Positions 4,426-27,855 of a DNA stretch of 64,000 bases are shown here, in pieces (the stretch's first letter is position 1; each line of letters starts with the position of its first letter). The DNA comes from an uncultured Bacteroidales bacterium (GTDB lineage Bacteria; Bacteroidota; Bacteroidia; Bacteroidales; GCA-2748055). Under the pieces are notes generated by a model. It did not search any database. It saw only the letters and a list, made by a program, of their open reading frames with translations, and was not told where the DNA came from. A program made the translations under genes and the position numbers. The stretch covers positions 197,029 to 261,028 of the forward strand of contig CAVYRO010000008.1 in the NCBI GenBank assembly GCA_963771005.1, read 5' to 3'.

Positions 4426-4553
4426 TGCCAACGTTTCGCGTATATGTTGCGTACCGTTTACGACAAACGTCGTAAACACGGTTAAGCATAAATTTACGAG
4501 AAATTATTGTAAAGACCGAGGACCCGGTATGCAACATATACGCTGTTAGGCAC
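4426..4553 (-). repeat. attC-like recombination site 3
   Basis: TGCCAAC (4426-4432), GTTTC, GCGTATATGTTGCGTACCG ... CGGTATGCAACATATACGC, T, GTTAGGCAC (4545-4553). Confidence 0.8.
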
Positions 4554-4878: not shown

Positions 4879-5016
4879 GTGCCTAACGTGCGGCGGTTAC
4901 CGTATTTGCCGGCATTCGGAGACGAAAACTTTCATCCGAAATTACTGCCGATTAAATGCTCAAACCTCTAAATACTCAAAAAACCAGGCAATTACGGTTA
5001 CCGCATGTTGTAGGGC
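4879..5016 (-). repeat. attC-like recombination site 4
   Basis: GTGCCTAAC (4879-4887) ... GGCAATTACGGTTACCGCAT, GTTGTAGGGC (5007-5016). Stems are GCGG..TTACCGTA..TTGCC / GGCAA..TACGGTTA..CCGC. Confidence 0.75.
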
Positions 5017-6034: not shown

Positions 6035-6171
6035 GCCCTACAACGTATGGCAATATGCGGAGGCCGGGATTTCGAAGCTCCAACTTATCAAACCGTTACA
6101 ATTTTGAGTAAATGTACAAAAGTTTAAAATACCCACATCCCCCGGCTTACGTATATTGCGTGTTGTGTTGC
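6035..6171 (-). repeat. attC-like recombination site 5
   Basis: GCCCTACAAC (6035-6044), GTATG, GCAATATGCGGAGGCCGGG ... CCCCCGGCTTACGTATATTGC, GT, GTTGTGTTGC (6162-6171). Confidence 0.8.
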
Positions 6172-6900: not shown

Positions 6901-7032
6901 GCAACACAACGTACGAGGCTAAAAACCGGCGGTCAACAGTGCACCACCCTTTAACCCACTAATTTTATTTTTTTTGCACTATCCCCCGAAACTTCCTGTC
7001 GCACGCTGGTATTTTAGCCTTTGTTAGAGGCC
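6901..7032 (-). repeat. attC-like recombination site 6a (belongs to ORF-less cassette copy 2)
   Basis: GCAACACAAC (6901-6910), then sequence near-identical to site 2a, ending GTTAGAGGCC (7023-7032). Confidence 0.8.
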
Positions 7033-7275
7033 GGTTGTATGCGCGCTGGCTGATTGCTGATTTACTTTCCGTTCCCTGTCAGCCCGCTACAACCCTTTGC
7101 ACATTCCCGCCTTTACTCACTGCGAGCGATGGATAATTGAAAACAGAGCGATCGGCCACCTGGCTTTCAAAACATTCTGCCCTAACCATCAACCACTAAC
7201 CTCATTTACCCTTCCGTATGTCCGCAAACCGTGCGTTGGGTAGGCTGTGCCTCACGATAAGGATTTTACTCAACT
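7033..7275 (-). other. ORF-less cassette body, copy 2
   Basis: Aligns with 2565-2807 along its whole length with scattered substitutions. No ORF of 60 aa or more. Confidence 0.6.
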
Positions 7276-7410
7276 GGCCTCTAACGCTCGCAGCTAGGCC
7301 CAGTGCGGGCTTTCGAAGCGATTTCTGTCAAACGAGTAAAAAGTTAATTTGAAAAAATGACATTTGCAAACCACTGAGCTGCCCGCATTGGGTTTAGCTG
7401 TTGTTAGCAA
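7276..7410 (-). repeat. attC-like recombination site 6b
   Basis: GGCCTCTAAC (7276-7285), GCTCG, CAGCTAGGCCCAGTGCGGGC ... GCCCGCATTGGGTTTAGCTG, TT, GTTAGCAA (7403-7410). Confidence 0.8.
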
Positions 7411-8119: not shown

Positions 8120-8253
8120 TTGCTAACGGTCGCGTGTATGAGTAGTGGCGGACTTCGAAGCACTTTCCAATCAAGATACACAGAATTTGATGCGAGGCAG
8201 AACACTCGAATACGCTACACCCCCCGCCATTACTTATACACGATGTTGGCGGT
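8120..8253 (-). repeat. attC-like recombination site 7
   Basis: TTGCTAAC (8120-8127), GGTCGC, GTGTATGAGTAGTGGCGG ... CCGCCATTACTTATACAC, GAT, GTTGGCGGT (8245-8253). It overlaps the last 8 codons of the methyltransferase ORF. Confidence 0.8.
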
Positions 8254-11370: not shown

Positions 11371-11506
11371 ACCGCCAACGGTTGGTGTATGAGGCGTTGG
11401 GCATTTCAACGCACTTCACTGTCAAACCGCTGATATGTTTATAAAATGTACTCATGTTTCAATTAACCACATGCTGCCCAATGACTTATACACATTGTTG
11501 TGCGGT
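11371..11506 (-). repeat. attC-like recombination site 8
   Basis: ACCGCCAAC (11371-11379), GGTTG, GTGTATGAGGCGTTGGGCA ... TGCCCAATGACTTATACAC, ATT, GTTGTGCGGT (11497-11506). Confidence 0.8.
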
Positions 11507-11631
11507 CGTACTTTTTCTTCAGTCAGGGTGGGCAAAGGCATACTCTTTGACAAGTTTTGGTCGTGGGGTTGACTTTTTGCGCGACTTGGCAATGTGTATG
11601 GCTTTAGCGAGGGCATTTCTATTTCTCCGAT

Positions 11632-13479
11632 TTATGGATTTAAAATGTCATATAAAATATCACCGGCTTTCGTGAGATTTCTCAACAAGTCATCTATTGT
11701 TATTTCTGCAACTCCTCTGTCGTTATAGGTCACATTTAGTCCAATAATTGCTTTATCAATTGTAAAAGGACTTTCCTTTATTTTAGTTAATCTATCACCA
11801 CCAGGATATGCTTCAGGGGGTACTCCTGTCGGTTTGGCAAACTGAACTCCTTCTCGTGTCCAGTCTTTAAAATGTATTGTAACCGGACTTTTTGTATTTG
11901 TGCCGTTATTAGTTACAGAGTAAATATTCTTTGCAATTTCGATTTTTGCTTGGTAATTAATCGCAGGTAAATTCAAATCAAACATGCTTCCTTTTGCAAC
12001 AAGTAATGTCCTCTCAGGTAGCGTAATATTTTTTAAGGCATCAATAACTTTAAAAGCAGCTAGAAGGTCATTTTTGTATATCGGACTTTCCAGGTCGTTG
12101 TGCGACATCGGATTAAAAAGAATGCTTTTGTATAAATACAAACTTTCAATTAAAATCATAGGCGGTTCAATTCCTAAATCGTCATAATATCGTTTAAGGT
12201 TGTCTATCAGCGTTTCAAGATTTGGTGGTTTTACTAAGCCTTTTAACCCTTCACCGACAGAATAGGTTGCCAACAATTTTTCGTGAAATAAATTTTCACA
12301 TTCTTTTCGCAAAGCATTAGCGCAAGCAGGGAAATCATAAACATTAAAGTAGGCTTTTGCTTTTTCAAAATTGGTCTTGTCTTGATGAATAATTTCGGGT
12401 CCTTCAGTTCCTTTGTAAAACTCAACAAATTTCCAGTCCCCAAGATTTAACTTCGCAACTTCATACCAGTGGCGGTCATAGGTTGTAATAAAAACCTGAA
12501 AATCTTTAAATACTTTATCTGCTTCGGCAACTTCTTTTTCTTGAAGCAATTGTAATAATTTCAACCTGTTTTCATTATCCAGACCGATTAAAATATCATC
12601 TAAGAATAAAGGTTTTATCTTCCTTGAAAAAGGACTTTGTTTAACAATCGCACCTAAGAAAATACTTATGGCAATAGCTGAAAGCTTTGCTTCATTTAAA
12701 ACAAACTGAGGATTATGGGCATCTAAATAAATTCCAGCACTTTCAACCAAAAGCAAAATCTTACTTTCAGTGATATTACCCCATTGATTTGTTGTTATTG
12801 TTCTACGTTGGAACTCAATTTTCAAGTCAGGGATTAGTTTTTCTAAAATTTTATTTACTGTTGGGGCTAAATAGTCAGGATTCCCGGTTAAAAATAATTT
12901 GTTAATCGCATTGTTAAATGCAATCGCTTTTTGTTCTACCGAAGCTTTCTTTTGCCGGGCAAAATAAAATTCATGACCACTGCCGAAAGGCTTATTACTT
13001 TCTTCTGCTACATCTGTCCAAAGTTTACCTAATTCAATGCCACCTGTTATAGTTTGAGATTTGAAATGTTTTAGTACACCATTTATTACAAGGTCGAAAA
13101 CATTGATTTGTTTACCAATTTTAATGTTGTGAACTGACAGCAAGTGTTTGTAGGTTATAAAACTCTTTAATCGGTTTGCATCTGTAATTGCTGGTGTTGC
13201 AGTAGTTTTTGTTGTATCGTTTAAGGTAAATTTTGCACCACCTTCAAATTCTACTTCTATTGAACAATCAGTTCCACCGTCATTAAGAAATAAGTTACGA
13301 AGAGCTGACATATCTATGTTTTCAACACTGGATTGAAAGAAGTCTTTTAGTGCATAATAAAACGAGCTTTTACCGCTTCCGTTTTCTCCATACATGAAAA
13401 CATTTTTACCACCAATTGGAATTTTCTCTTCCTTGGTAAATGCTTTATATTTATCAATGGTTACATTTTGGATTCTCAT
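11632..13479 (-). CDS. ABC/SMC-type (RecF-like) ATPase
   Basis: 615-aa intact ORF with Walker A GENGSGKSS near the N-terminus and Walker B/D-loop LFLDDILIGLD. Its ATG overlaps the methyltransferase stop (ATGA at 13476-13479). Confidence 0.7.
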   Translation of the reverse strand: MRIQNVTIDKYKAFTKEEKIPIGGKNVFMYGENGSGKSSFYYALKDFFQSSVENIDMSALRNLFLNDGGTDCSIEVEFEGGAKFTLNDTTKTTATPAITDANRLKSFITYKHLLSVHNIKIGKQINVFDLVINGVLKHFKSQTITGGIELGKLWTDVAEESNKPFGSGHEFYFARQKKASVEQKAIAFNNAINKLFLTGNPDYLAPTVNKILEKLIPDLKIEFQRRTITTNQWGNITESKILLLVESAGIYLDAHNPQFVLNEAKLSAIAISIFLGAIVKQSPFSRKIKPLFLDDILIGLDNENRLKLLQLLQEKEVAEADKVFKDFQVFITTYDRHWYEVAKLNLGDWKFVEFYKGTEGPEIIHQDKTNFEKAKAYFNVYDFPACANALRKECENLFHEKLLATYSVGEGLKGLVKPPNLETLIDNLKRYYDDLGIEPPMILIESLYLYKSILFNPMSHNDLESPIYKNDLLAAFKVIDALKNITLPERTLLVAKGSMFDLNLPAINYQAKIEIAKNIYSVTNNGTNTKSPVTIHFKDWTREGVQFAKPTGVPPEAYPGGDRLTKIKESPFTIDKAIIGLNVTYNDRGVAEITIDDLLRNLTKAGDILYDILNP

Positions 13480-16400
13480 TTTAAAGCTTCTTTTATTATT
13501 CTCACTTCTTCAATGCTGTCCAGAGTCTCAATGGCATATTTTACCGGGTGGTTGTCGTCATACAAACGTTCAAACTCACTTTGTACAATTGCCAATTTTT
13601 CTTCCGGACTCATGGTCTCATTTATTGGTTTTAGATTACCTAAGTGTTTGATTATTTCTTTATCAGCTGATTTGAGTTCTTTGGGGAAGTAAAGTTCATA
13701 AACTATTTCATTTATCAATTCAAAGAAAAACTGTTCATACAATTCATTTAATGAAAAGGAAAAAATGCAATACTGCCTAATGACTATTATTAAATTAGCA
13801 ATATCAGAATCATATGAAGGCAACGGAAAATTCCGAATATCAGTCACAAGAATTTTAGGAAAATCACCTTTTGTTGCTTTAGGTGAAGCATTAAAATGAT
13901 AGAAGGTTGCAATAGTTGAATTTAGAATTCCCCATAACCATTCAAGTGAATAACTGGTATTTTCCTTATTTATAATCGAAATAATTTGTGGGTCATTAAC
14001 CAGATGTTCTTCAACAATGCAGGCAATTATTGTTGGATTAGTAATTTCTCTAACTAAAACTCTCTTCCTATTAAAGTACCTTGGCTCGATATAGCCAGCA
14101 AGGTGTTTGCCATACCATATGTATGAATCAGCTTTCGAGTAACTGTATTTATTCAGGTTCCTACCTTGAATTTCTTGTTCATATTCTGATGATATTTTTT
14201 CAGTACTATGCCATTCTCTATTGTCAACAATAGAATTTCCATTTTCTTTTCCATAGGTTTTTATTAAATCACTCCTTCTGTATGGAATATAACCTTGCGA
14301 TATGTCAAACAAATTTTCAAGATTATTTCTTTTTTCTGTTATCCTCTTTATAGTTTCGACAGTAGTTGGGCTTAATTTAAATGCTAATCCCCAATTTTTA
14401 TTGAAAGATGTGATTTCTTCTTTTGAAATTTCTAATCTTGGTCTTGAAATTAATTCTATGAAACTATTTGCCTCATTGGTATTTCGATATCCAATACTAA
14501 TTGTTTCTTTAGTTAAACCTTTAGACCAATTGAAAATTGTATTTCTTACAACTGCACTCTCAAAAAACTTAAAGTTTGTACAATCCAAAATTTCATTTAC
14601 TGTCCACCTATCTAAAATCTTATTTCTATAATTTTCAGCAAATACATTAAACAATATGGAATTAGGAATTATAAAGGTATTGCATCCATTATTGTGTAAA
14701 AGCTTGAAAGAAAGTTCTATGAAAAAATAGTATATCTCATAATCAGGGACTTTTTCAAATTGCTTCAAAACTATCTTTCTGTAATCATCTTTTATTGATA
14801 CACCATATGGTGGATTTCCAATCACCACATCAAAACCGCCCTTTTCGTGCCAAACCTCTGAGAAATAGAGTTTGAAATCAAAGTCGATTTTATATCCTGC
14901 AAATTCTTCAATCTCATCTAATAGTTGTCTGATTTTCTTGTTTATCTGTAGGCGAAGTTCTTTCTTTTTAGTTTCATTTGTTTCATCATAAAAAAGTGGT
15001 TTTAATCTTTCTATTTCTTTTAGAAGTTCATCATTTGGTAAAACATCTGTTGGCTTACCAATTAATGAGTTGCCGCAAACAATTTTATAATCCAGATTTG
15101 GCAGGGTTTCAATGGGGTCAAGGTCATCTTCGTCGACCACAAGCGAAAGCCACAAACGCAAACGGGCAATATCAATTGCTGAAGCATCAATATCTACTCC
15201 GTAAATGCTTTCTTGAATAATATGGCGTTTTAATCGATAGATATAACGACTTTCGTTGATACTCTCGTGAAACTGAAAACCAAAGCCATCTAATTTTTTA
15301 TTCAAATAAGCATTGCTTAAATGCGGCATTAATACTAATTGTGCATTTACTAATTCATGTAACAAACCCACCGGAAAAGCCCCCGAGCCAATAGCAGGGT
15401 CGCAAATTCGTATTTCTGTTAATTTCCGGTCAATCAACTCTGCATTATTTCTAATGCTTTCAGGAATTTGGTATTTATAATCTTTGGTTTCTGTTCCTTT
15501 GTTTGCAACACGCTGGTCGTTTTCCAACGCAAAGTTTCCTTCTCGAATATAAACTTCTATGTCGTCTTTCTTAACTTTTTCTTCCAGTGCATTGTCCAAA
15601 TAATGTATCAGGCTTTCCTGGCACATATAATGCACAATTTCACGCGGAGTATAAAACGCGCCATTACCTTTTCGATCGTTTATCATCGAAAAGATTTTCA
15701 AAAACTTTTCCCAACATTTCCGGGTCAACAGCTACTTCTTTGTCCAGCGGCTCGTCTTCTTTTATGGTAAAGTTGTAGCGGTCAAAAACATCCAAAACTC
15801 CGGTTCCCTTATCTCCGGCTTTGTTTTTTTCTTCATTACTGAAATAGATTTTCGGGAATGGTAATGTTGGCAGTTTCCCAATCGTATTCTGCTTCAAACA
15901 ATCCTCCATTTAAAAATGGAATCCGGCAATCAAATCGTTTGTAATAAGAGTTTTCATTGTTCCGTTCTTTTGCCAATGCTTCGTAAAACAAGGGTTGCAG
16001 AATAATCTTTAAAGTAATTTTGGTTTTTTCTTTGAGCTTCTTCAAACAATTCCTGAATAAAACGTTTTTTTCCTTTTCCCCAATGTTCGTTTTGTGGTAC
16101 ACCCAGCCAGCCTTTTTTCTGCAAAAAATAGAGAAATACAATTTGCCCGAGTAGTTTTTTTGTAAATCGGGTGTTGTCAATATTCGCCTTTTCTAATTCG
16201 GATTGAATGTGCGTGTCGTTTTCAAAATGTTCGTACAGTTTAACATACAAATCTTTGTATTGACCGAAAAATTCATCGGTGACTTTTTCAATGCTAAAAG
16301 CATTTTCAATTTCTTCAATGGTAGGATTATTGCATATGTTTTGAAGTAATGGCAGAATTTGGTTTTTGCGTGTATGTGCTTTTTCATATTCACCCACCAG

Positions 16401-16867
16401 AAAGGAATACCTTTTTGCAGGTGTAAATTCTTTTCGGGTTTTTACCTTTTGTTTTTCTTCATCTAAGATACGACTGATGTTCGAGTTTAATGAACGAAAA
16501 ACGCCAGTCGGCTCCATCATCTTCTTTTGAATAAAAAGCAACAAGAGCATAATCTTTTTCAAATTTGCTCAGGTGTTTAATCACAAAATTTCGTAATGCG
16601 GTTCTGGCTCGTTCCAGTTTCGCACCGCTTTTCACTTCAACAATTAAAACGTCCAGCGCTTCGCCTTCCGGGTCAATGTACTTGCCAATTCGTTTGTAGG
16701 TGTTGATGTGTTCTTTGTGGTCGTCCCAAATATATTGTCCGCTGTAGACATTGCTTTTGGGTTCAATATCATTCAGCAAGTTTTTGACAAACAGTGTAAA
16801 CCGGCTTTCATCAAACCTTTACTTGAATGTTTCTTCGATTAAGTGATATGGCAGTATTTTTATCCAT
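13476..16867 (-). CDS. Large Eco57I/type IIG-like N6-adenine DNA methyltransferase; N-terminal third fragmented by frameshifts
   Basis: The intact 750-aa C-terminal ORF carries CDPAIGSGAFP (SAM motif I) and VVIGNPPYG (motif IV). The fragments 15664-15909, 15836-16180, 15954-16562 and 16459-16779 read as one continuous N-terminal region (e.g. QIVFLYFLQKKGWLG). The proposed ATG at 16867-16865 (MDKNTAISL...) comes from manual translation. Confidence 0.7.
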
Positions 16868-19800
16868 AATTATTTAATAAGGTATCCTGATAAAATGACT
16901 TCACGTTTTTGAAAAGCTTTTTTCGTGCTGTACTGTTTTCAATGGCAATTGCTCGAATGTGTTTTCTTAAAATATTGAGTGCTTCCAATGGGTCGATGGT
17001 TTTTTCCAATTCATTTTTAATGTCCCGGGCAGTGCGTTTTGCCATTGTACCCAGCTACTAAAATATTTTTCACACTTTCTAATAAATTCATCGTCCGAAT
17101 CGGTAAAGCTTTTGACAGTTTTTAAAGATTTATCTTTTAAGCGTTTTTCGATGTATTTTACATTTGAACGCCCGCCGGCGAGTTTTTTGCGGTTCATCGC
17201 CAATGGTGGTGTCCAACTCAAAGCGAGCCCTGTTTGTCTGTAAAAGATGGTAATAATCGTCAGGGATTTTTGCCCTTTTGGTTAAAGGTTTACATTCCAG
17301 ATTATAAACTGCATCAAAAAAAGTAATTTCATCTGAGCTGCCCTTTTTGTTGAGATAGAATTTTTTGAGTTTACCAATCCTGAAAAAAGTAAGTAGTTGA
17401 TTGGCTTCAATTTTTGACTTTTATAAATCCTGAACGGGCTTTTTTAGGTAGGTTTTTTATTTTTTGAAATAAATCAGGATTTTCATCTCTTATTTTTCGC
17501 ATCATTTCCAGATACTTCAATTCCGAATCGCCTTCTTCATCTTCTCCGGTGTAGGCCTTTTTGTTATTCAAGGTGTTAAACAATTCCTGACTTCCAATTT
17601 CTTCGCCATCGGTCAGGTATTTGGCATCTTCACCCAAAATATCATGAAACATCTGGATTTTATTGGTGATGTTCATTTCCAATCCAAGATGTGCATCCGA
17701 TTGTGTTGTTGGGAAGAAATTAAAAATATGCACATTTGTCAAATGCTGACTTCCCAAACGATTCACACGTCCGGCTCTTTGTAGCACTCTGGTTGGATTC
17801 CAGGGCAAATCGTAATTGATAACCACATTTGACCGATGAAGGTTAATTCCTTCAGCCAAAACATCGGTGGCAATCAGAATTCTCAAATCATTAACTTGTT
17901 CTTTTGGTTTTTCTATTTGGGTCGTAATTGGCTTGAATAATATCGCGTGAAACAGTGTGATTTGATGTTAGTTTCAAATCTGAGTGACGTCCGCCTTTAC
18001 TGGAATAAAACATTACCTATTTAGGAAATTCGTTTAGCAAAGCTTCATAAATGTAATCACCTGTTTCTTTTGATTCTGTGAAAATTACAAGCTTATTGTT
18101 CTATTCAAGTGATTTGGTTTTCTTTGATTCAAAAATGAACTGTTCAAGTTTCGGGTCTGAGTCAACAGTTCTGCCATAATTCTTTTACTTGTTTAAAACT
18201 TTTAAATCAAATTCAAGTTTTGTTTTAAAGTCTTTTTTAAAGTCTTTTGAATCATATTTGTTGGCTTTGTCTTCTTCAACCAATTCATCGAGTTTATCAA
18301 TGTCATCATTTCTCAAGCAGGTCGTAAACATCTACTTTTTTGCTGATATAAACTGTTCCAGAATCGAACATTGAGATAAAGTTTTCATAAGAAAGAATAA
18401 AACGGTCAACACTTTGCCGAAAAGCGTAAAAACTACTTTCCAAACGTTTAACAAGAATTCCTTTCATAAATCCTCCAACATTTCGCTGTTGTTGTTTTTC
18501 AAACTCACTTAGCTGCTTTATTTCCAATGTAAAAAAGCAACGGCGTGTATCTGGAATAGGTAAAGTGTGTAGGAGTTTTATCGTTTGCTTTAAAAGTGTT
18601 TTCAAATTCACCTTCGTATTCATATACAATTTTCTGCGGGTCTTTCACATTCAGGAAAAACCAAACCTTGTTTAAGAATATCGCCTTTAAAATAAGTAAC
18701 AACATCTGACCGTGTTCTTCGAACCATGACATATCTTAAAATGTTGTTTTTAATTTCGTTTGAAACTTCTTTAATGAGAATTTTATAAGCAGGGTCATCT
18801 TTTTCAACTTTCTTTAGCTTGGTTCTTAATGAATTAAAAAACTTTTCAAGATTTGGCACTCCGGGAATAGTTGACTGTTTTGGAGCCTGAAATAATTTAA
18901 GTTGTGCAAAAATATCATCAACCGTATTGTTTAAAGGAGTTGCAGTAACAAGAATTACTTTTTTGCCCCGGCAAATATCCAATAAGGTTGGCATATGATT
19001 GTGTGTTTTCATTTCTGAAACGGTGTGCTTCATCCACAACAATATAATCGTATCGTTCTAATCCTTTTTTAATGATGTGTTCCAGTTTACCAAGCGATTC
19101 AACTTCAAAACTTCGGATACCAAAATCAAATAAAGAATCTTTCCAGTAATCCTTTCAACACAGGAGGACAAACAACTAAAGTTCTGCCCTGAATTTGTTG
19201 AAGAAGTAAAGCTGTAATAAATGTTTTACCAAGACCAACAACATCAGCAAGAAAAACGCCATTGTATGCTTCCAGAATTTTCTTTGCCTGAATTGCAGCC
19301 TGACTTTGATATTTTAATTTCATAAATCCATCTGGCAGAAATGGGTCAAACTGGTCTTCCAGATTTATGTCTTCTTCCAAGTATTCATAAATTAATTTCA
19401 GATAAAATTCGTATGGAGTAATTTGATCATTTAACCATGTTTTTGTTGTAATTGTGTCAACAAAATCATCTGAAATATCAACAGATTCATTCCAAAGCTC
19501 ATTAAACTGGTTTTCTGCAAATTTAACATCTAATGTTTTCCTCAACTCAACATTAAATTCTCGGTTTGCCACAAAGCCAGATTCAGAAAAATTACTTGAA
19601 CCAGTAATTACAAAACCATAATCTCTGTCTTCAGGATGGAATCTGCCTATGTAAACTTTTGCATGAATATTTTTTGATGGATAGGCTCTTATTTCTAATT
19701 TTTTTCCATTTCCTCCAATTGCTTTATCATCTGCTGGATTTTTACATTCTTGTTGTAAAAATTCAATAAATTTCCGAATTCCAATTTCTAAGCTTGTTAT

Positions 19801-20143
19801 CATTTTCATCACTTGTTTCAATTTCAGTTTTCAGGTTTGCCTGAAATTGTTTTTTTGTTCTTTGATGCGATTCAAAATCAATCATTCCGATTTGCTCGTG
19901 ATATTGCAAAATATCATAAGAATCTCTGTCAACGCTTAAACCAACAAGTATTCTGACTTTTTCAACAGGTTCAAGTGATTCATACAATTGATAAAAACCA
20001 CTTGCCCTGAAATAACCAACAAGTACATCAAAAAGTTGAGTGTCTTTTAGTGTTGCTTTAAATCGATTTAATAAACTACTTCCATTTTCATTTGTGAAAA
20101 ATGTCAAGTCAGTTTGGTCAATATTATTTGTCTTCTTATCCAT
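16860..20143 (-). CDS. Phospholipase-D-like nuclease domain fused to SNF2-family helicase; heavily fragmented (8 or more frame breaks)
   Basis: 19763-20143 and 19126-19821 give the PLD region ([18 protein letters not shown]) and helicase motif I ([10 protein letters not shown]). 18620-19042 gives [11 protein letters not shown]. 17407-17886 gives helicase-C motifs ([31 protein letters not shown]). Short fragments continue to a stop at 16860. Confidence 0.7.
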
Positions 20144-20156
20144 TAAATTCAGTTAT

Positions 20157-20438
20157 TTACTCGATTGATTTAATTGTTTCTTGTAAACCAATCTTCAAAT
20201 ATTCCAACTCGCCCAGTTCTGTTAAAATCATTGATTTGATAAATTCAATTTGAATTTCCTTTTCCGGTTTGTCAAGTGTATCGGATAGGATTGGAATCAT
20301 TTCGGTCGTTGCACGTCTTTCATTGCGTTCAATCTTGCTTAACAATGAAGTATCAATGTCAAGTGCAGCAGCAACTTTTCTAAGGGGTAATTCTTTGTCT
20401 TCTCTTGCTTTCCGTAAGTATTCACCAAATGATTTCAT
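20157..20438 (-). CDS. XRE-family helix-turn-helix transcriptional regulator
   Basis: 93-aa ORF. FGEYLRKAREDKELPLRKVAAALDIDTSLLSKIERNERR is a canonical HTH_3-type segment. It is the first gene of the 9.1-kb cassette. Confidence 0.8.
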   Translation of the reverse strand: MKSFGEYLRKAREDKELPLRKVAAALDIDTSLLSKIERNERRATTEMIPILSDTLDKPEKEIQIEFIKSMILTELGELEYLKIGLQETIKSIE

Positions 20439-20603
20439 CTTGTCAATTTATTTTAGACGATTCTGTCCAAAAATACATCTTTTTTATTTTGTTTTTCCAT
20501 CAGCGGGTCGGAAAAGATTAAGCTCTTTTGGTTTTTTTAGGGTTGGCATTTTGTGTCGGCAAAAAACCAAATGTGCTTAATGTGCGTGGGGCTTTTTCAG
20601 TAT

Positions 20604-20741
20604 GCCGCACAACGTTTGACAATATGGCAAGTGGCGGTTTGCGGAGCGCGTCTGTATCCACCGTTGAAAAAGTTTGAAGCGGGCTACAATGCCCGAATTT
20701 ACTACTATCCCCGCCATTTGCTATATTGTGTGTTAGGGGGC
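20604..20741 (-). repeat. attC-like recombination site 9
   Basis: GCCGCACAAC (20604-20613), GTTTG, ACAATATGGCAAGTGGCGG ... CCGCCATTTGCTATATTGT, GT, GTTAGGGGGC (20732-20741). Confidence 0.8.
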
Positions 20742-22055: not shown

Positions 22056-22190
22056 GCCCCCTAACGGTGGCAATATGCAAAGTTTGGGATTACGGAGCGA
22101 TTCACTATCAAGCTACACGGCACTTGATGCGAGCCACAACCCTTGAATAACCTATTAAACCCCAATTTTGTATATTGCATGTTGTGTGCC
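22056..22190 (-). repeat. attC-like recombination site 10
   Basis: GCCCCCTAAC (22056-22065), GGTG, GCAATATGCAAAGTTTGGG ... CCCCAATTTTGTATATTGC, AT, GTTGTGTGCC (22181-22190). Confidence 0.8.
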
Positions 22191-22957: not shown

Positions 22958-23093
22958 GGCACACAACGTTTGATGGTATGGTGTCGTGCGGGATTACGAA
23001 GCGATTTCCTATCAGTTTACACCGACTTTTTTTACGAGCCACAAACGCTCGAAAACCTCTGAAACCCGCATGCACTATACCATGTGTTGGCGT
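22958..23093 (-). repeat. attC-like recombination site 11
   Basis: GGCACACAAC (22958-22967), GTTTG, ATGGTATGGTGTCGTGCGGG ... CCCGCATGCACTATACCAT, GT, GTTGGCGT (23086-23093). Confidence 0.8.
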
Positions 23094-25256: not shown

Positions 25257-25386
25257 ACGCTAACGGTCACCGGTAAGTTTCGTTGCCAGGGTTGTTGTGC
25301 TTGTTAAAATCATTAATTATCGTTAATCCGAATTTACGAATTCGGAGCGAACCTGGCAATGAAATTTACCGGATGTTGTGTGGCGT
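25257..25386 (-). repeat. attC-like recombination site 12 (first attC after the attI-like site)
   Basis: ACGCTAAC (25257-25264), GGTCA, CCGGTAAGTTTCGTTGCCAGG ... CCTGGCAATGAAATTTACCGG, AT, GTTGTGTGGCGT (25375-25386). Confidence 0.8.
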
Positions 25387-25393
25387 GCTATTT

Positions 25394-25687
25394 TTAAAAT
25401 ATCCTTTTTATGTTTTTCCGGCTAATATGGAGATAAACAATGGATACTTTAAAATCTACGATATTGTAAAAAATGGTGGTTTGCTTACTTAGAACAGCTT
25501 TTCGGAGGTGGGGATTATAGGTCGAGACAGGAAACATATAAGGATTCTGAATAATCAGTCCAAGCTGTTTATTTAATTTGTGCTTAAAACGATCAATCTC
25601 CTTCTGGGTCGATCGACTTGATAAATAATCTAGAATTTCTTCCAGATTTTTCAGGGATTCATCTGACCAATGAAGTTTATAATCCAT
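25394..25687 (-). CDS. RelE/ParE-family type II toxin
   Basis: 97-aa ORF whose start overlaps the end of a small upstream antitoxin-like ORF. The sequence style (MDYKLHWSDESLKNLEEILDYL...) matches plasmid-stabilisation toxins of Bacteroidota. Confidence 0.65.
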   Translation of the reverse strand: MDYKLHWSDESLKNLEEILDYLSSRSTQKEIDRFKHKLNKQLGLIIQNPYMFPVSTYNPHLRKAVLSKQTTIFYNIVDFKVSIVYLHISRKNIKRIF

Positions 25688-25904
25688 ATTTTTTCTTCAC
25701 TACTTCATGAGGTGTGGTTCTCCCTTGTTTAATGTCCTGTATCCCTCTTTCTATACTTGCCCGCTCATCATCGGAGAGATCATCCCACCAATCATGGCCC
25801 GAAGACCAGGAATCTTTAATAAGTTTTAAATACTCAATAGTCTCTTTATCTTCCAGTTTGGCAAGCCATTCTATCAACTCTAATTTTATTGTTTCCTGTT
25901 CCAT
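25677..25904 (-). CDS. Putative antitoxin of the RelE/ParE pair
   Basis: Start taken at ATG 25904-25902 (MEQETIKLELIEWLAKLEDKETIEYLKLIK...). About 75 aa, overlapping the toxin start by 11 nt. The longer track ORF begins inside the attI-like region. Confidence 0.55.
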   Translation of the reverse strand: MEQETIKLELIEWLAKLEDKETIEYLKLIKDSWSSGHDWWDDLSDDERASIERGIQDIKQGRTTPHEVVKKKYGL

Positions 25905-25966
25905 CACCTTTTTTTTCAAAGTTATGAAATTTTTGGTACTTTTTAATCGATAGGTGCTCTTTGCAT

Positions 25967-26030
25967 GACACACAACGTTTTTATATACGCAATATTACGA
26001 TATATAGATGTATATCGTAATATTGCGTAT
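25967..26030 (-). other. attI-like primary recombination site
   Basis: ACACACAAC (25967-25975), GTTTT, then a perfect 21-bp inverted repeat TATACGCAATATTACGATATA (25983-26003) / TATATCGTAATATTGCGTATA (26010-26030) around TAGATG. It has only one AAC/GTT box, no second box on the recombinase side, and is the last site before the recombinase gene. Confidence 0.6.
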
Positions 26031-26265
26031 AATATCTCCTGTCTGAAACTTTTAAAATTTTTCTGAACTACACGATGATCCTGTTTCCCTTTCCTTGTCC
26101 ACCCCCCCAGTGCTTTTCCTGTTTTTTGATTTATATGTCACTGTAAAACACTATCTTAAGGAAACCCGGTCGAATAAATCCTAAATGCTTCTTTCATTAC
26201 AGGTCCACTTAAAGCTAAAGGAAAAATTCCGAATTTCCAACCTTTGGCCGGAATTTCCTCCAACC

Positions 26266-27855
26266 TCACCCGATATCCAACTCATCAAAAGGATTTTTTT
26301 CATCCGTGTTTTTACGGCTGGTTACATGGGTGTATATTTCGGTGGTCTTGATGCTGCTGTGTCCCAACTTTTCCTGCAATGCCCTTATGTCCTTCGTCAG
26401 TTCGTAATCGTGCGTCGCAAAAGTATGCCTTACTTTATGAGGAGTTATGTCCTTATCGACGCCGGCCCGCACGGCTGCACGCTTCACAACTTTCTCAACA
26501 CTCCCTCGTGAATATTTCCCGCCGTTCATTCCTTCAAAAAGATATACCGAAGGCTTGTACCGTTCCATATATTTCTCGTAAAAAGGATCAAATTTCGCCG
26601 GAATGGGCACATAACGCTCCTTCCTTCCCTTGCCCATTATCAACAATTGCCGCCTTTCCCAGTCAAAATGGTCAAGTTTGCAGTCCAGGACTTCGGCTAA
26701 TCTCATCCCGGTAGCATATAATATTATGATCAGGGTCTTATGCTTGATGTTTCGGGTAACCTCAATCATCTTCTTTATCTCATCGGTATTCAGGAACTTC
26801 GGTAAAGTTTTTCCCAATTTGGGCCGGTCAATGAAATAAAATTTTCTTTCCCCGCCTTTGACTTTCTCATAATAAAACTTAATGGCATTGATGGCCAGAT
26901 TCAGGGTTGATTCAGAAACATTCCTCTCCACATTTAGATACATCAGAAATGACCTTATCTCATCTTCCGTGATCTTATCAATCTCTACTGTGTCGAAAAA
27001 ATTAATAAACTCCGTAAACATGGAAGTATAATTCCTGCAGGTATTCTTACTGTACCTTAACTCTTTCAGCTTGAAGATATACGTATCCGGACAGGGCCGG
27101 AAATTTTCAATCTCATCCCTTCTCTTTCTTTTTTTAACGGGTCCCCCCTTTACATCCTCTATGCAGGAAAAGGATTTTCCTAAAGCCGTGATAATGTTCT
27201 GCAATTGCCTGAGAAACAGTTCAGAAAAAGGGATTGAAAAGCATTTGTTCATTTTGTCATACTTCCAGTATGGGAATTCTTTGATTTTCTTGATTAAATC
27301 TTTGTTGTACTTACCGATAATCTTTAATCTGCCCGATGCAGTCCTGACGATCCGGATATCGGTATCAAATGCCGGGGACGAAATTTCATCTTCCTTCATT
27401 AATTCCGCATCCTTTAACCTGGTTCCAAAGTAGGATCGGATTTTATCAAGATTAGTTCCGAAATTTGTCACCTGCCAAAGCCTGTTCGTCCAATCCCAGT
27501 TGCTGTATCTAATTAATTCCTTGATGAACCGGAGGTCAGCTTCATTTTTCTCCATTTTAACCAGGATCTTTTTTTCAAAAACCTGCATAAGAACTGGCTC
27601 TGAACCTTCCGGATCCCCCTCCTTTTCCTTAGGTTTATCTGTAGAGGAGGCACTTTTTTCCTGATATTCAAGATTTGGAAACATCCTCTTTATCTCACTG
27701 AAGGCTTCACGCGTATACGGAATATGCCACGATCTATACGTCTTGCTCCAGGTACAACCTTTGATCGTCTTTATTTTTTCTTTTGTGGAAGTATCATAGG
27801 GGAATTTCAGAAGTATACGATACTCTCCGTGATGCAGGATTTTTTCCAGTTCCAT
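26266..27855 (-). CDS. Tyrosine site-specific recombinase (XerC/D-like catalytic domain) with a 240-aa N-terminal extension of three related modules
   Basis: 529-aa intact ORF. Catalytic motifs are ATGMRLAEV (Arg), GKGRKER (Lys), HKVRHTFAT (HxxR) and LGHSSIKTTEIYTHV (His, Tyr). The SAM-like core-binding segment is YSKNTCRNYTSMFTEFINFF...STLNLAINAIKFYY. Only 58 aa lie between GKGRKER and HKVRH by my count. Confidence 0.9.
   Translation of the reverse strand: MELEKILHHGEYRILLKFPYDTSTKEKIKTIKGCTWSKTYRSWHIPYTREAFSEIKRMFPNLEYQEKSASSTDKPKEKEGDPEGSEPVLMQVFEKKILVKMEKNEADLRFIKELIRYSNWDWTNRLWQVTNFGTNLDKIRSYFGTRLKDAELMKEDEISSPAFDTDIRIVRTASGRLKIIGKYNKDLIKKIKEFPYWKYDKMNKCFSIPFSELFLRQLQNIITALGKSFSCIEDVKGGPVKKRKRRDEIENFRPCPDTYIFKLKELRYSKNTCRNYTSMFTEFINFFDTVEIDKITEDEIRSFLMYLNVERNVSESTLNLAINAIKFYYEKVKGGERKFYFIDRPKLGKTLPKFLNTDEIKKMIEVTRNIKHKTLIIILYATGMRLAEVLDCKLDHFDWERRQLLIMGKGRKERYVPIPAKFDPFYEKYMERYKPSVYLFEGMNGGKYSRGSVEKVVKRAAVRAGVDKDITPHKVRHTFATHDYELTKDIRALQEKLGHSSIKTTEIYTHVTSRKNTDEKNPFDELDIG

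Follow-up and report, generated by a model that had tools for sequence, protein, structure and literature searches.

A 64,000-nucleotide (nt) stretch of an uncultured Bacteroidales genome (GenBank contig CAVYRO010000008.1; this whole stretch is the window, numbered from its first letter) carries a long array of attC-like cassette sites that ends next to a tyrosine recombinase gene. Between the two lies a site of another kind, a single AAC/GTT box beside a perfect inverted repeat. Is this site the attI of the array? A sequence-only reading of the window had proposed that it is, and comparison of the same locus in relatives supports the proposal. We believe that the site is probably (about 0.8) the attI of an integron-like cassette system, i.e. 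its primary insertion site in double-stranded form. It stands at the junction of a conserved recombinase side and a variable cassette array, the inverse core (R'') in the first attC is complementary to its GTT core, and the breakpoints between relatives fall at GTT. On the minus strand the order is recombinase, attI candidate and 15 attC sites, which is the classic integron layout.

The palindromic site and the attC array

The sequence-only reading had described one box followed by a perfect 21-nt inverted repeat, and this structure is present. The extent it gave, 25967-26030, was essentially right, the palindrome ending one base further, at 26031. On the plus strand, positions 25968-25983 read ACACACAAC GTTTTTA and are followed by TATACGCAATATTACGATATA / TAGATG / TATATCGTAATATTGCGTATA. 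The repeat finder placed the two arms at 25984-26004 and 26011-26031, each 21 nt long and 100% complementary to the other, around a 6-nt loop. This is the longest perfect inverted repeat (loop ≤10 nt) of the window and the sole one of at least 12 nt, compared to maxima of 8-12 nt in 30 composition-preserving block shuffles of the window. The palindrome folds with ~-20 kcal/mol (-19 to -20) on either strand (z ~-6.5). It lies 7 nt from the single AAC/GTT box at 25969-25976, and the 28 nt on its recombinase side contain no partner GTT/AAC box, as had been claimed. The recombinase stop codon had been put 236 bp away; it is near, with 234 nt measured from the palindrome to the open reading frame (ORF), which starts at 26266 with the stop included.

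The 21-nt arms are in turn imperfect palindromes (10+11), which divides the repeat into four half-sites. Read on the minus strand from the recombinase side, these are the distal half-site TATACGCAAT (26022-26031), the third half-site ATTACGATATA (26011-26021), the 6-nt centre (26005-26010; TAGATG on the plus strand), the second half-site TATATCGTAAT (25994-26004), inverted relative to the next, and the proximal half-site ATTGCGTATA (25984-25993), presumably the L arm of the core site. A 7-nt spacer, TAAAAAC on the minus strand (25977-25983), presumably forms the overlap or central region and leads to the R box, GTTGTGTG on the minus strand (25969-25976), with the crossover triplet GTT at 25976-25974 and the cassette-derived part starting at TT. 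The minus-strand layout is therefore TATACGCAAT ATTACGATATA CATCTA TATATCGTAAT ATTGCGTATA TAAAAAC G/TTGTGTG, the slash marking the crossover. The distal 10-mer occurs nowhere else in the window without mismatch, and a search of the rest of the window, the region of the recombinase promoter included, found no more half-site copies than chance would give. The inner half-sites ATTACGATATA and TATATCGTAAT (25994-26021, minus strand) form an 11-6-11 unit around the 6-nt centre, and we take this unit to resemble a symmetric Xer core site.

The earlier count of 15 attC-like sites was confirmed. A crude scan for AAC...GTT pairs around complementary inner boxes yielded 12 sites of 116-125 nt, and three further sites were located from the predicted inverse-core sequences. 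All lie on the minus strand in an array that spans 838-25377 and continues past the window start; in plus coordinates, from AAC to GTT, they occupy 838-969, 1563-1683, 2439-2563, 2815-2936, 4430-4547, 4885-5009, 6042-6164, 6908-7031, 7283-7405, 8125-8247, 11377-11499, 20611-20734, 22063-22183, 22967-23088 and 25262-25377. Each has the R''-L''...L'-R' structure of an integron array, reading on the minus strand as YAAC, a spacer of 1-3 nt, an inner box, a loop, a second inner box, a spacer of 4-6 nt and GTTR. What follows the GTT of one site recurs as its reverse complement ahead of the AAC of the next, without a break over the whole array. Such unbroken R'-to-R'' complementarity is expected if cassettes circularise and reinsert by crossover at G/TT.

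This chain begins at the attI candidate, where GTTGTGTG (25976-25969) pairs with CACACAAC in the first attC, 25262-25377. The sequence-only reading had pointed to an 8-nt match between the box, read there as CACACAAC, and the GTTGTGTG flank of site 22063-22183. That match exists, and more telling is the complementarity of the same box to GTTGTGTG of the adjacent first attC. The site is, as had been noted, unlike all 15 attC sites: it has no inverse-core partner, and instead of a long imperfect hairpin of 116-125 nt it has a short perfect palindrome. The motifs said to be common to the palindrome arms and the inner boxes of the attC sites fared less well. GCAATAT and GTATA(T/C) do occur in several sites, but the likeness is a loose, TATA-centred one whose register relative to GTT is off by ~2 nt. 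The further proposal that the site shares recombinase-binding determinants with the cassette sites, which draws on this loose resemblance, is less well supported.

The same locus in related genomes

If the site is attI, the palindrome side should stay fixed between related loci and the first cassette should vary. This pattern, predicted by the sequence-only reading, was found in three sets of relatives (L002-L005, L013/L018 and L087), and an ordinary attC at the same position was not seen in the relatives. L002-L005, four contigs from four samples, encode an identical recombinase (P0029, 41% identical to that of the window) and share identical upstream genes and 181 nt of identical downstream DNA. 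The shared DNA ends in ATAAACGCAAGTTT...AAACTTGCGTTTAT ACAAAT (tail ...TTGCGTTTAT ACAAAT). After ACAAAT, L003-L005 have GTT and then two different first cassettes, GTTATATAAA in L003 and L005 and GTTAGGCAAC in L004, with the divergence at GTTA. L003 and L005 have a short first cassette in common and split right after its attC GTT; L061 and L062 likewise diverge right after an attC GTT. In L013 and L018 the intergenic DNA has diverged except for a 36-nt island, CAGATATATACGCAATATTGCGTATATTCACTCGTT, made up of palindrome, spacer and GTT, after which different cassettes follow.

The closest relative, L087 (61% identity), reads TATACGCAAT ATTGCGCATTATA ... ATAATGCGCAAT ATTGCGTATA CACAAAT GTTGTCCGCC. 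It has the same outer half-sites as the window, the distal and proximal ones being identical, in a palindrome that likewise consists of four half-sites and is followed by 7 nt of spacer, GTT and another cassette. Its inner half-sites differ from those of the window (ATAATGCGCAAT in place of the second one), yet the arms of its 22-nt inverted repeat are again perfectly complementary. The 234-nt spacer between recombinase stop and palindrome (26032-26265, minus strand) is poorly conserved: the L087 alignment is conserved across attI and otherwise barely alignable there.

The GTT phase extends to more distant members of the family. Beside the repeats of the window and of L006, L007, L034, L055, L057, L061/L062, L064 and L075, the GTTnnnn sequence is the one predicted by the R'' of the first detected attC. 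Anchoring 21 lineages (42-90% protein identity) on this GTT placed a consensus, TTGCGTWTA, between -16 and -8, where 15-19 of the 21 agree at every specified position (n = 8). It is followed by an A-rich spacer of 7 nt that ends in a pyrimidine (-1), and by GTT then a purine. The 7 nt between TTGCGTWTA and GTT are fixed in all 21 lineages, and the window fits the consensus exactly (TTGCGTATA TAAAAAC GTTG), its proximal half-site ATTGCGTATA included. Pairwise identity in the consensus zone was 47% compared to 30% in control DNA. The additional motif copies vary across lineages, from 2 to 4, either inverted back-to-back or 16-27 nt apart with an extra direct copy. Sense-oriented attC-like sites numbered 36 in 163 kb downstream of the recombinases and 6 in 343 kb upstream. 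Also, of the 32 long metagenome contigs among L007-L086 (those with ≥5 kb ahead of the recombinase), 22 end within 1.7 kb past the stop codon. So strong an asymmetry points to breaks in assembly, as would be expected if the region varies within populations. Judged by the breakpoints in the relatives, the crossover maps to GTT, outside the palindrome and not at its centre.

We propose the following mechanism. The proximal half-site ATTGCGTATA would be the left arm of a tyrosine-recombinase core site and GTTGTGTG the right arm and place of strand exchange, with the 7 bp between them as the overlap region. The other three half-sites may be accessory binding sites that load extra recombinase protomers or their N-terminal, HARP-like DNA-binding domains, and may favour attI x attC synapsis, as DR1 and DR2 do in attI1. 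The partner would be the attC of an excised cassette, in the form of its folded bottom strand (the window's plus strand). A single strand exchange at GTT, then replication, would leave the new cassette immediately after the recombinase gene and oriented like it. The identity of the binding protein, action on double-stranded DNA, the accessory role and the exchange chemistry are all, in this proposal, suggested by analogy and comparison. A single-stranded, folded attI was also considered; with no partner strand for the R box, it is unlikely.

Several points weigh against reading the site as attI. The support is comparative and in silico throughout, and attI behaviour is deduced from relatives of 41-61% identity next to a single copy of the window locus; the exact window recombinase is absent from the contig index, which leaves no second copy to compare. 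A simple search left about half of the family loci without a clear inverted repeat plus GTT (27 of 62, compared to 11% of shuffles). Protein identity did not correlate with identity of the attI-proximal DNA (Spearman 0.09, p = 0.2), which leaves co-evolution of recombinase and attI undemonstrated. Published work holds the IntI domain to be necessary for integron recombination, and the recombinase is without it. Finally, L002 has no GTT at its junction. In this copy of the P0029 locus, from a 4.3-Mb genome, the junction at 11800-11830 reads ...TTGCGTTTATACAAAT/AAATTGGG and the first gene (LinB-like) seems to have lost its 5' end; this state of the junction probably goes back to a deletion or to some illegitimate event at attI.

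An Xer-like recombinase and other explanations of the palindrome

The presumed integrase, a tyrosine recombinase of 529 aa (26266-27855, minus strand; Pfam PF13495 and PF00589), is the only tyrosine recombinase within the window. Three N-terminal HARP-like domains (~1-60, 87-146 and 165-225) precede a SAM-like core-binding domain and the catalytic domain, and the presumed catalytic residues are conserved in 25 aligned relatives. The NCBIfam integron-integrase model TIGR02249 gave 180 bits against a cut-off of 265, with the match split in two stretches. Aligned to the Vibrio cholerae integrase VchIntIA (2a3v), residues 267-428 and 451-522 correspond to 17-179 and 245-316, so that 22 residues take the place of the 65-residue specific domain of IntI. 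This additional domain near patch III is not present in the recombinase, and none of the 25 aligned members has a long insertion there. The alignment to archaeal XerA structures is continuous, and the XerA model gave 219 bits against a cut-off of 220; VchIntIA and XerA are the closest structures by fold. The recombinase is Xer-like and not a canonical IntI.

In AlphaFold models, the N-terminal 250 residues fold into three beta-beta-alpha-beta-beta-alpha domains, within which pLDDT is >90. Pfam HARP (PF07443) matches 15 of the 25 family members (best E = 1.1e-5); the match of the window recombinase is weak, at 10.4 bits against a cut-off of 25 (E = 0.48). Local fold matches of the N-terminal part, all of them weak, were to the HARP domain of SMARCAL1 (4o66, 27% identity), the damage-recognition domain of XPB and the DNA-binding domain of MotA. 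The family comprises >900 full-length homologues of ~540 aa at ~40% identity. Those that are named are annotated only as XerD or site-specific integrase, and come from Bacteroidales, Chitinophagales, Sphingobacteriales and Thermonemataceae, all of them Bacteroidota.

The domain that is absent here is the one with which IntI reads the extrahelical bases of attC, and the predicted folds of the attC sites are notable for this reason. Bottom-strand minimum-free-energy folds (e.g. of 1563-1683, 4430-4547 and 8125-8247) have a bulge of 2-5 nt (GTTTC or GTTTGA) that separates the R box from the inner stem, and frequently, 10-12 bp up the stem, a 1x1 mismatch; single-base bulges, corresponding to the extrahelical bases of canonical attC, are not predicted. 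In 10 of 12 attC sites the more stable fold is that of the plus strand, i.e. the bottom strand with respect to cassette sense (summed energies -259 vs -225 kcal/mol). We also observed imperfect R''/R' pairs at sites 22967-23088 and 25262-25377 (AACGCCAAC vs GTTAGCGTT), which give a C-A mismatch on the top strand and a G-T wobble on the bottom strand. The wobble fits the bottom strand as the folded substrate.

Could the palindrome instead be the operator of a separate dimeric transcription factor, for the cassettes or for the recombinase, that merely happens to lie beside the crossover GTT? We consider this unlikely. Perfect palindromes are typical of operators, and a weak sigma-70-like match on the cassette strand (TTTAAA, 16 nt, TATTAT; 26056-26029, minus strand) overlaps the distal edge of the palindrome, but such matches occur at chance level (4 found vs 3.7 expected). 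Nothing beyond this match was seen that would suggest a cassette promoter (Pc) in or near the recombinase gene and attI. The Bacteroidota-type promoter motif TAnnTTTG is absent from the stop-to-attI spacer of the window, and some relatives have one just after the stop codon. The proximal half-site keeps its 7-nt phase with the crossover GTT in 21 lineages, while the other half-sites vary in number (2-4 copies), in gap (0-27 nt) and in orientation, direct as well as inverted. Such variability fits recombinase arm sites better than a dimer operator, and no regulator gene is conserved beside the recombinase.

The sequence-only reading had itself named a terminator of the recombinase gene as the alternative that would speak against attI, and a hairpin with that sole function, and no part in recombination, is highly improbable: the site is not terminator-like. 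The hairpin does lie 234 nt past the stop codon on the transcribed strand, with a stable fold of -19 to -20 kcal/mol. However, the AT-rich stem is followed on the recombinase strand by TAAAAACG, which is not a T-run, and a terminator scan found none. The palindromes of the relatives are either loop-less or have loops of 16-27 nt with a third, direct motif copy (loops overall 0-27 nt), and neither version would terminate transcription. What is conserved is moreover a specific sequence, TTGCGTWTA, phased to GTT.

A further explanation takes the recombinase as a single-protein Xer resolvase of chromosome dimers, the palindrome as its dif-like site and the cassettes as Xer-exploiting elements piled up beside dif. 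It is improbable as an alternative, though in part it can be reconciled with attI. In its favour are the Xer-like catalytic core described above and the 11-6-11 arrangement of the inner half-sites. The motif TTGCG(Y)AT(A/T)A presumably resembles the XerC arm of dif, and the inner half-sites of L087 (TTGCGCATTA) are, we assume, even closer to that arm than those of the window. Single-recombinase Xer systems such as XerS/difSL keep dif beside the gene. The arrangement around the centre (6 nt in the window, roughly 4-8 nt in L087) is, however, missing from most other lineages, which have only back-to-back or direct half-sites. Crossovers map to GTT outside the palindrome and not to its centre, and the cassettes have 120-nt attC hairpins with AAC/GTT boxes. 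Chromosomal dif lies at the replication terminus, where GC skew switches from positive to negative and cumulative skew has its maximum; the locus is instead at a cumulative minimum, near 30 kb, with genes diverging from it. The G+C content is 33% in the array, 41% in the recombinase gene and 50% in the flanking genome, a sharp step in composition that leaves the recombinase gene AT-rich relative to its host; the integron platform looks foreign to the host genome. A single-protein scan of the genome contigs found only an unrelated Rickettsiaceae Xer.

It is also conceivable, but very improbable in our view, that the array is a CALIN, an attC cluster without its own integrase, and that recombinase and palindrome are the integrase and att site of an unrelated integrative element. 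The recombinase does fall outside the definition of IntI, and a published analysis judged recombinases without the IntI domain near attC sites not to be integron integrases. Against this explanation, the association recurs in the same orientation over dozens of lineages, with the conserved site as the start of the array. What lies upstream is unrelated from one lineage to the next, and no full-length family members were among the best 80 viral-contig matches, which were ordinary integrases matching the catalytic half only.

Setting these explanations aside, we return to attI. The kind of system (attI, attC and tyrosine recombinase) is known; the attI described here looks new as a variant, and part of an undescribed integron class. 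We lean, with rather more confidence than doubt, to the view that it belongs to a distinct and widespread Bacteroidota integron class, whose Xer-like integrase would do without the IntI domain and would use three HARP-like, structure-specific DNA-binding domains for folded attC and for a multi-half-site attI. A description of this recombinase family was not found in the searchable literature, the coverage of which is incomplete, so novelty is not proven.

Comparison with known systems, and the cassettes

IntI reads attI as a double-stranded sequence and attC as a folded bottom strand (PMC8946536). Like attI1 of class 1 integrons, the site described here lies beside the integrase gene, with a GTT-core crossover and no inverse-core partner, and would likewise act as a double strand. 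Both consist of a single proper core (L, spacer, R) with additional motif copies upstream, and both have a sequence specific to the integrase lineage; attI sites are known to be integrase-specific and to co-evolve with the integrase, and the accessory repeats of attI1 favour attI x attC recombination (PMC8946536). The extra sites here form a perfect four-half-site palindrome in contrast to the two direct repeats, DR1 and DR2, of attI1. The motif TTGCGTWTA is unrelated to that of attI1, and the site lies 3' of the integrase gene instead of upstream of its 5' end.

With the sedentary chromosomal integron of V. cholerae (IntIA/attIA/VCR) the array has in common its length, with at least 15 cassettes in 26 kb, mutually similar attC sites of ~120 nt with AAC...GTT, the R'/R'' chain, a better-folding bottom strand and toxin-antitoxin or defence cassettes. 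The integrases differ, with 22 residues here compared to 65 in VchIntIA at the specific domain and ~250 extra N-terminal residues in the present protein. So do the attC sites, whose predicted 2-5-nt bulge beside the R box takes the place of single extrahelical bases. Unlike the site described here, attIA is reported to have no accessory repeats (PMC8946536). In the inverted-integrase integrons of Treponema and others, the integrase gene is oriented as the cassettes and attC sites are, as in the window, but those integrases are bona fide IntI with the specific domain (PMC4889954).

Among the Xer/dif systems (XerA, XerC/D, XerS, XerH) likeness extends to the catalytic core and SAM-like domain, nearest to XerA and IntI, and to a core site whose binding arm is separated by a 6-7-bp centre from a second arm. 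The location away from the terminus, the cassette arrays, the three added HARP-like domains and the integron-type GTT crossover set the present system apart. Its N-terminal repeats have the same beta-beta-alpha-beta-beta-alpha size and order as the HARP domain of SMARCAL1; the window protein itself matches weakly, annealing helicases and not recombinases are where HARP is known to occur, and a DNA-binding role here would follow by analogy.

The additional IntI domain is reported to be necessary for activity (Messier and Roy 2001, as cited in PMC4889954), and IntegronFinder defines IntI by the specific domain. In the complete-genome survey by the authors of that tool, recombinases near attC that lack the domain were scattered cases with very few attC sites. 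Bacteroidetes have been reported to contain essentially only In0 elements and one complete integron (PMC9024848). If the present reading is correct, single-strand cassette capture of the integron type either evolved independently or persists without a domain deemed essential, and programs that search for integrons would register such loci as no more than orphan attC clusters. Should the family prove functional, a major phylum would possess an integron class of its own, overlooked by the tools now in use. The candidate attI supplies a short, defined double-stranded substrate (TTGCGTATA, 7 nt and GTT, plus three further half-sites), with which binding and attI x attC assays could probe recombination without the IntI domain and the contribution of the HARP-like domains.

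The first cassette, including its attC, occupies 25264-25975 on the minus strand, bounded by the G/TTGTGTG of attI and the R' G of the first attC. It contains a small ORF of no assigned function (25677-25973) and an ORF for a ParE-like toxin (25394-25687; ParE_toxin, 23.2 bits against a cut-off of 23). The palindrome was considered as the operator of this ParE toxin-antitoxin cassette and the idea was rejected, the palindrome lying on the non-cassette side of the crossover and being conserved next to different first cassettes. Restriction-modification, DarTG and toxin-antitoxin cassettes are found in arrays of the family.

A single cassette of 9.1 kb (11499-20611) is bounded by the complementary boxes GTTGTGCGG and CCGCACAAC and encodes an Eco57I/MmeI-type methylase together with PLD and helicase fragments. 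Its 5' 400 nt are 71% identical to an array cassette in a Chitinophagales genome. Since the recombinase of that genome is only 41% identical, this suggests that the two arrays may draw on a common cassette pool. Two near-identical cassettes of ~250 nt without ORFs, with near-identical attC sites (6908-7405 and 2439-2936), look like the product of a duplication or of repeated insertion.

A conserved leader of ~90-130 nt, 78-86% identical between unrelated genomes, lies directly after the R' box of some cassettes. In the window it is found at 20480-20618 (minus strand, the 5' start of the 9-kb cassette) and at ~720-830, and in relatives at +177 to +310 (L004), +95 to +190 (L018) and +6040 (L002). 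It contains the inverted repeat TTTGGTTTTT...AAAAACCAAA, and in L002 and the window it precedes a small helix-turn-helix (HTH) gene and restriction-modification or defence genes. The leader may be a cassette-borne promoter or the operator of a controller protein.

Rfam and tRNA scans of the window returned nothing. Genes for an ECF sigma factor, FecR and a SusC-type TonB-dependent receptor lie in the flank, a combination that we take to be associated with Bacteroidota. In L006, the first gene of the first cassette after attI (11686-12048) encodes a single-stranded DNA-binding protein (SSB), a curious cargo for a system that putatively uses single strands.

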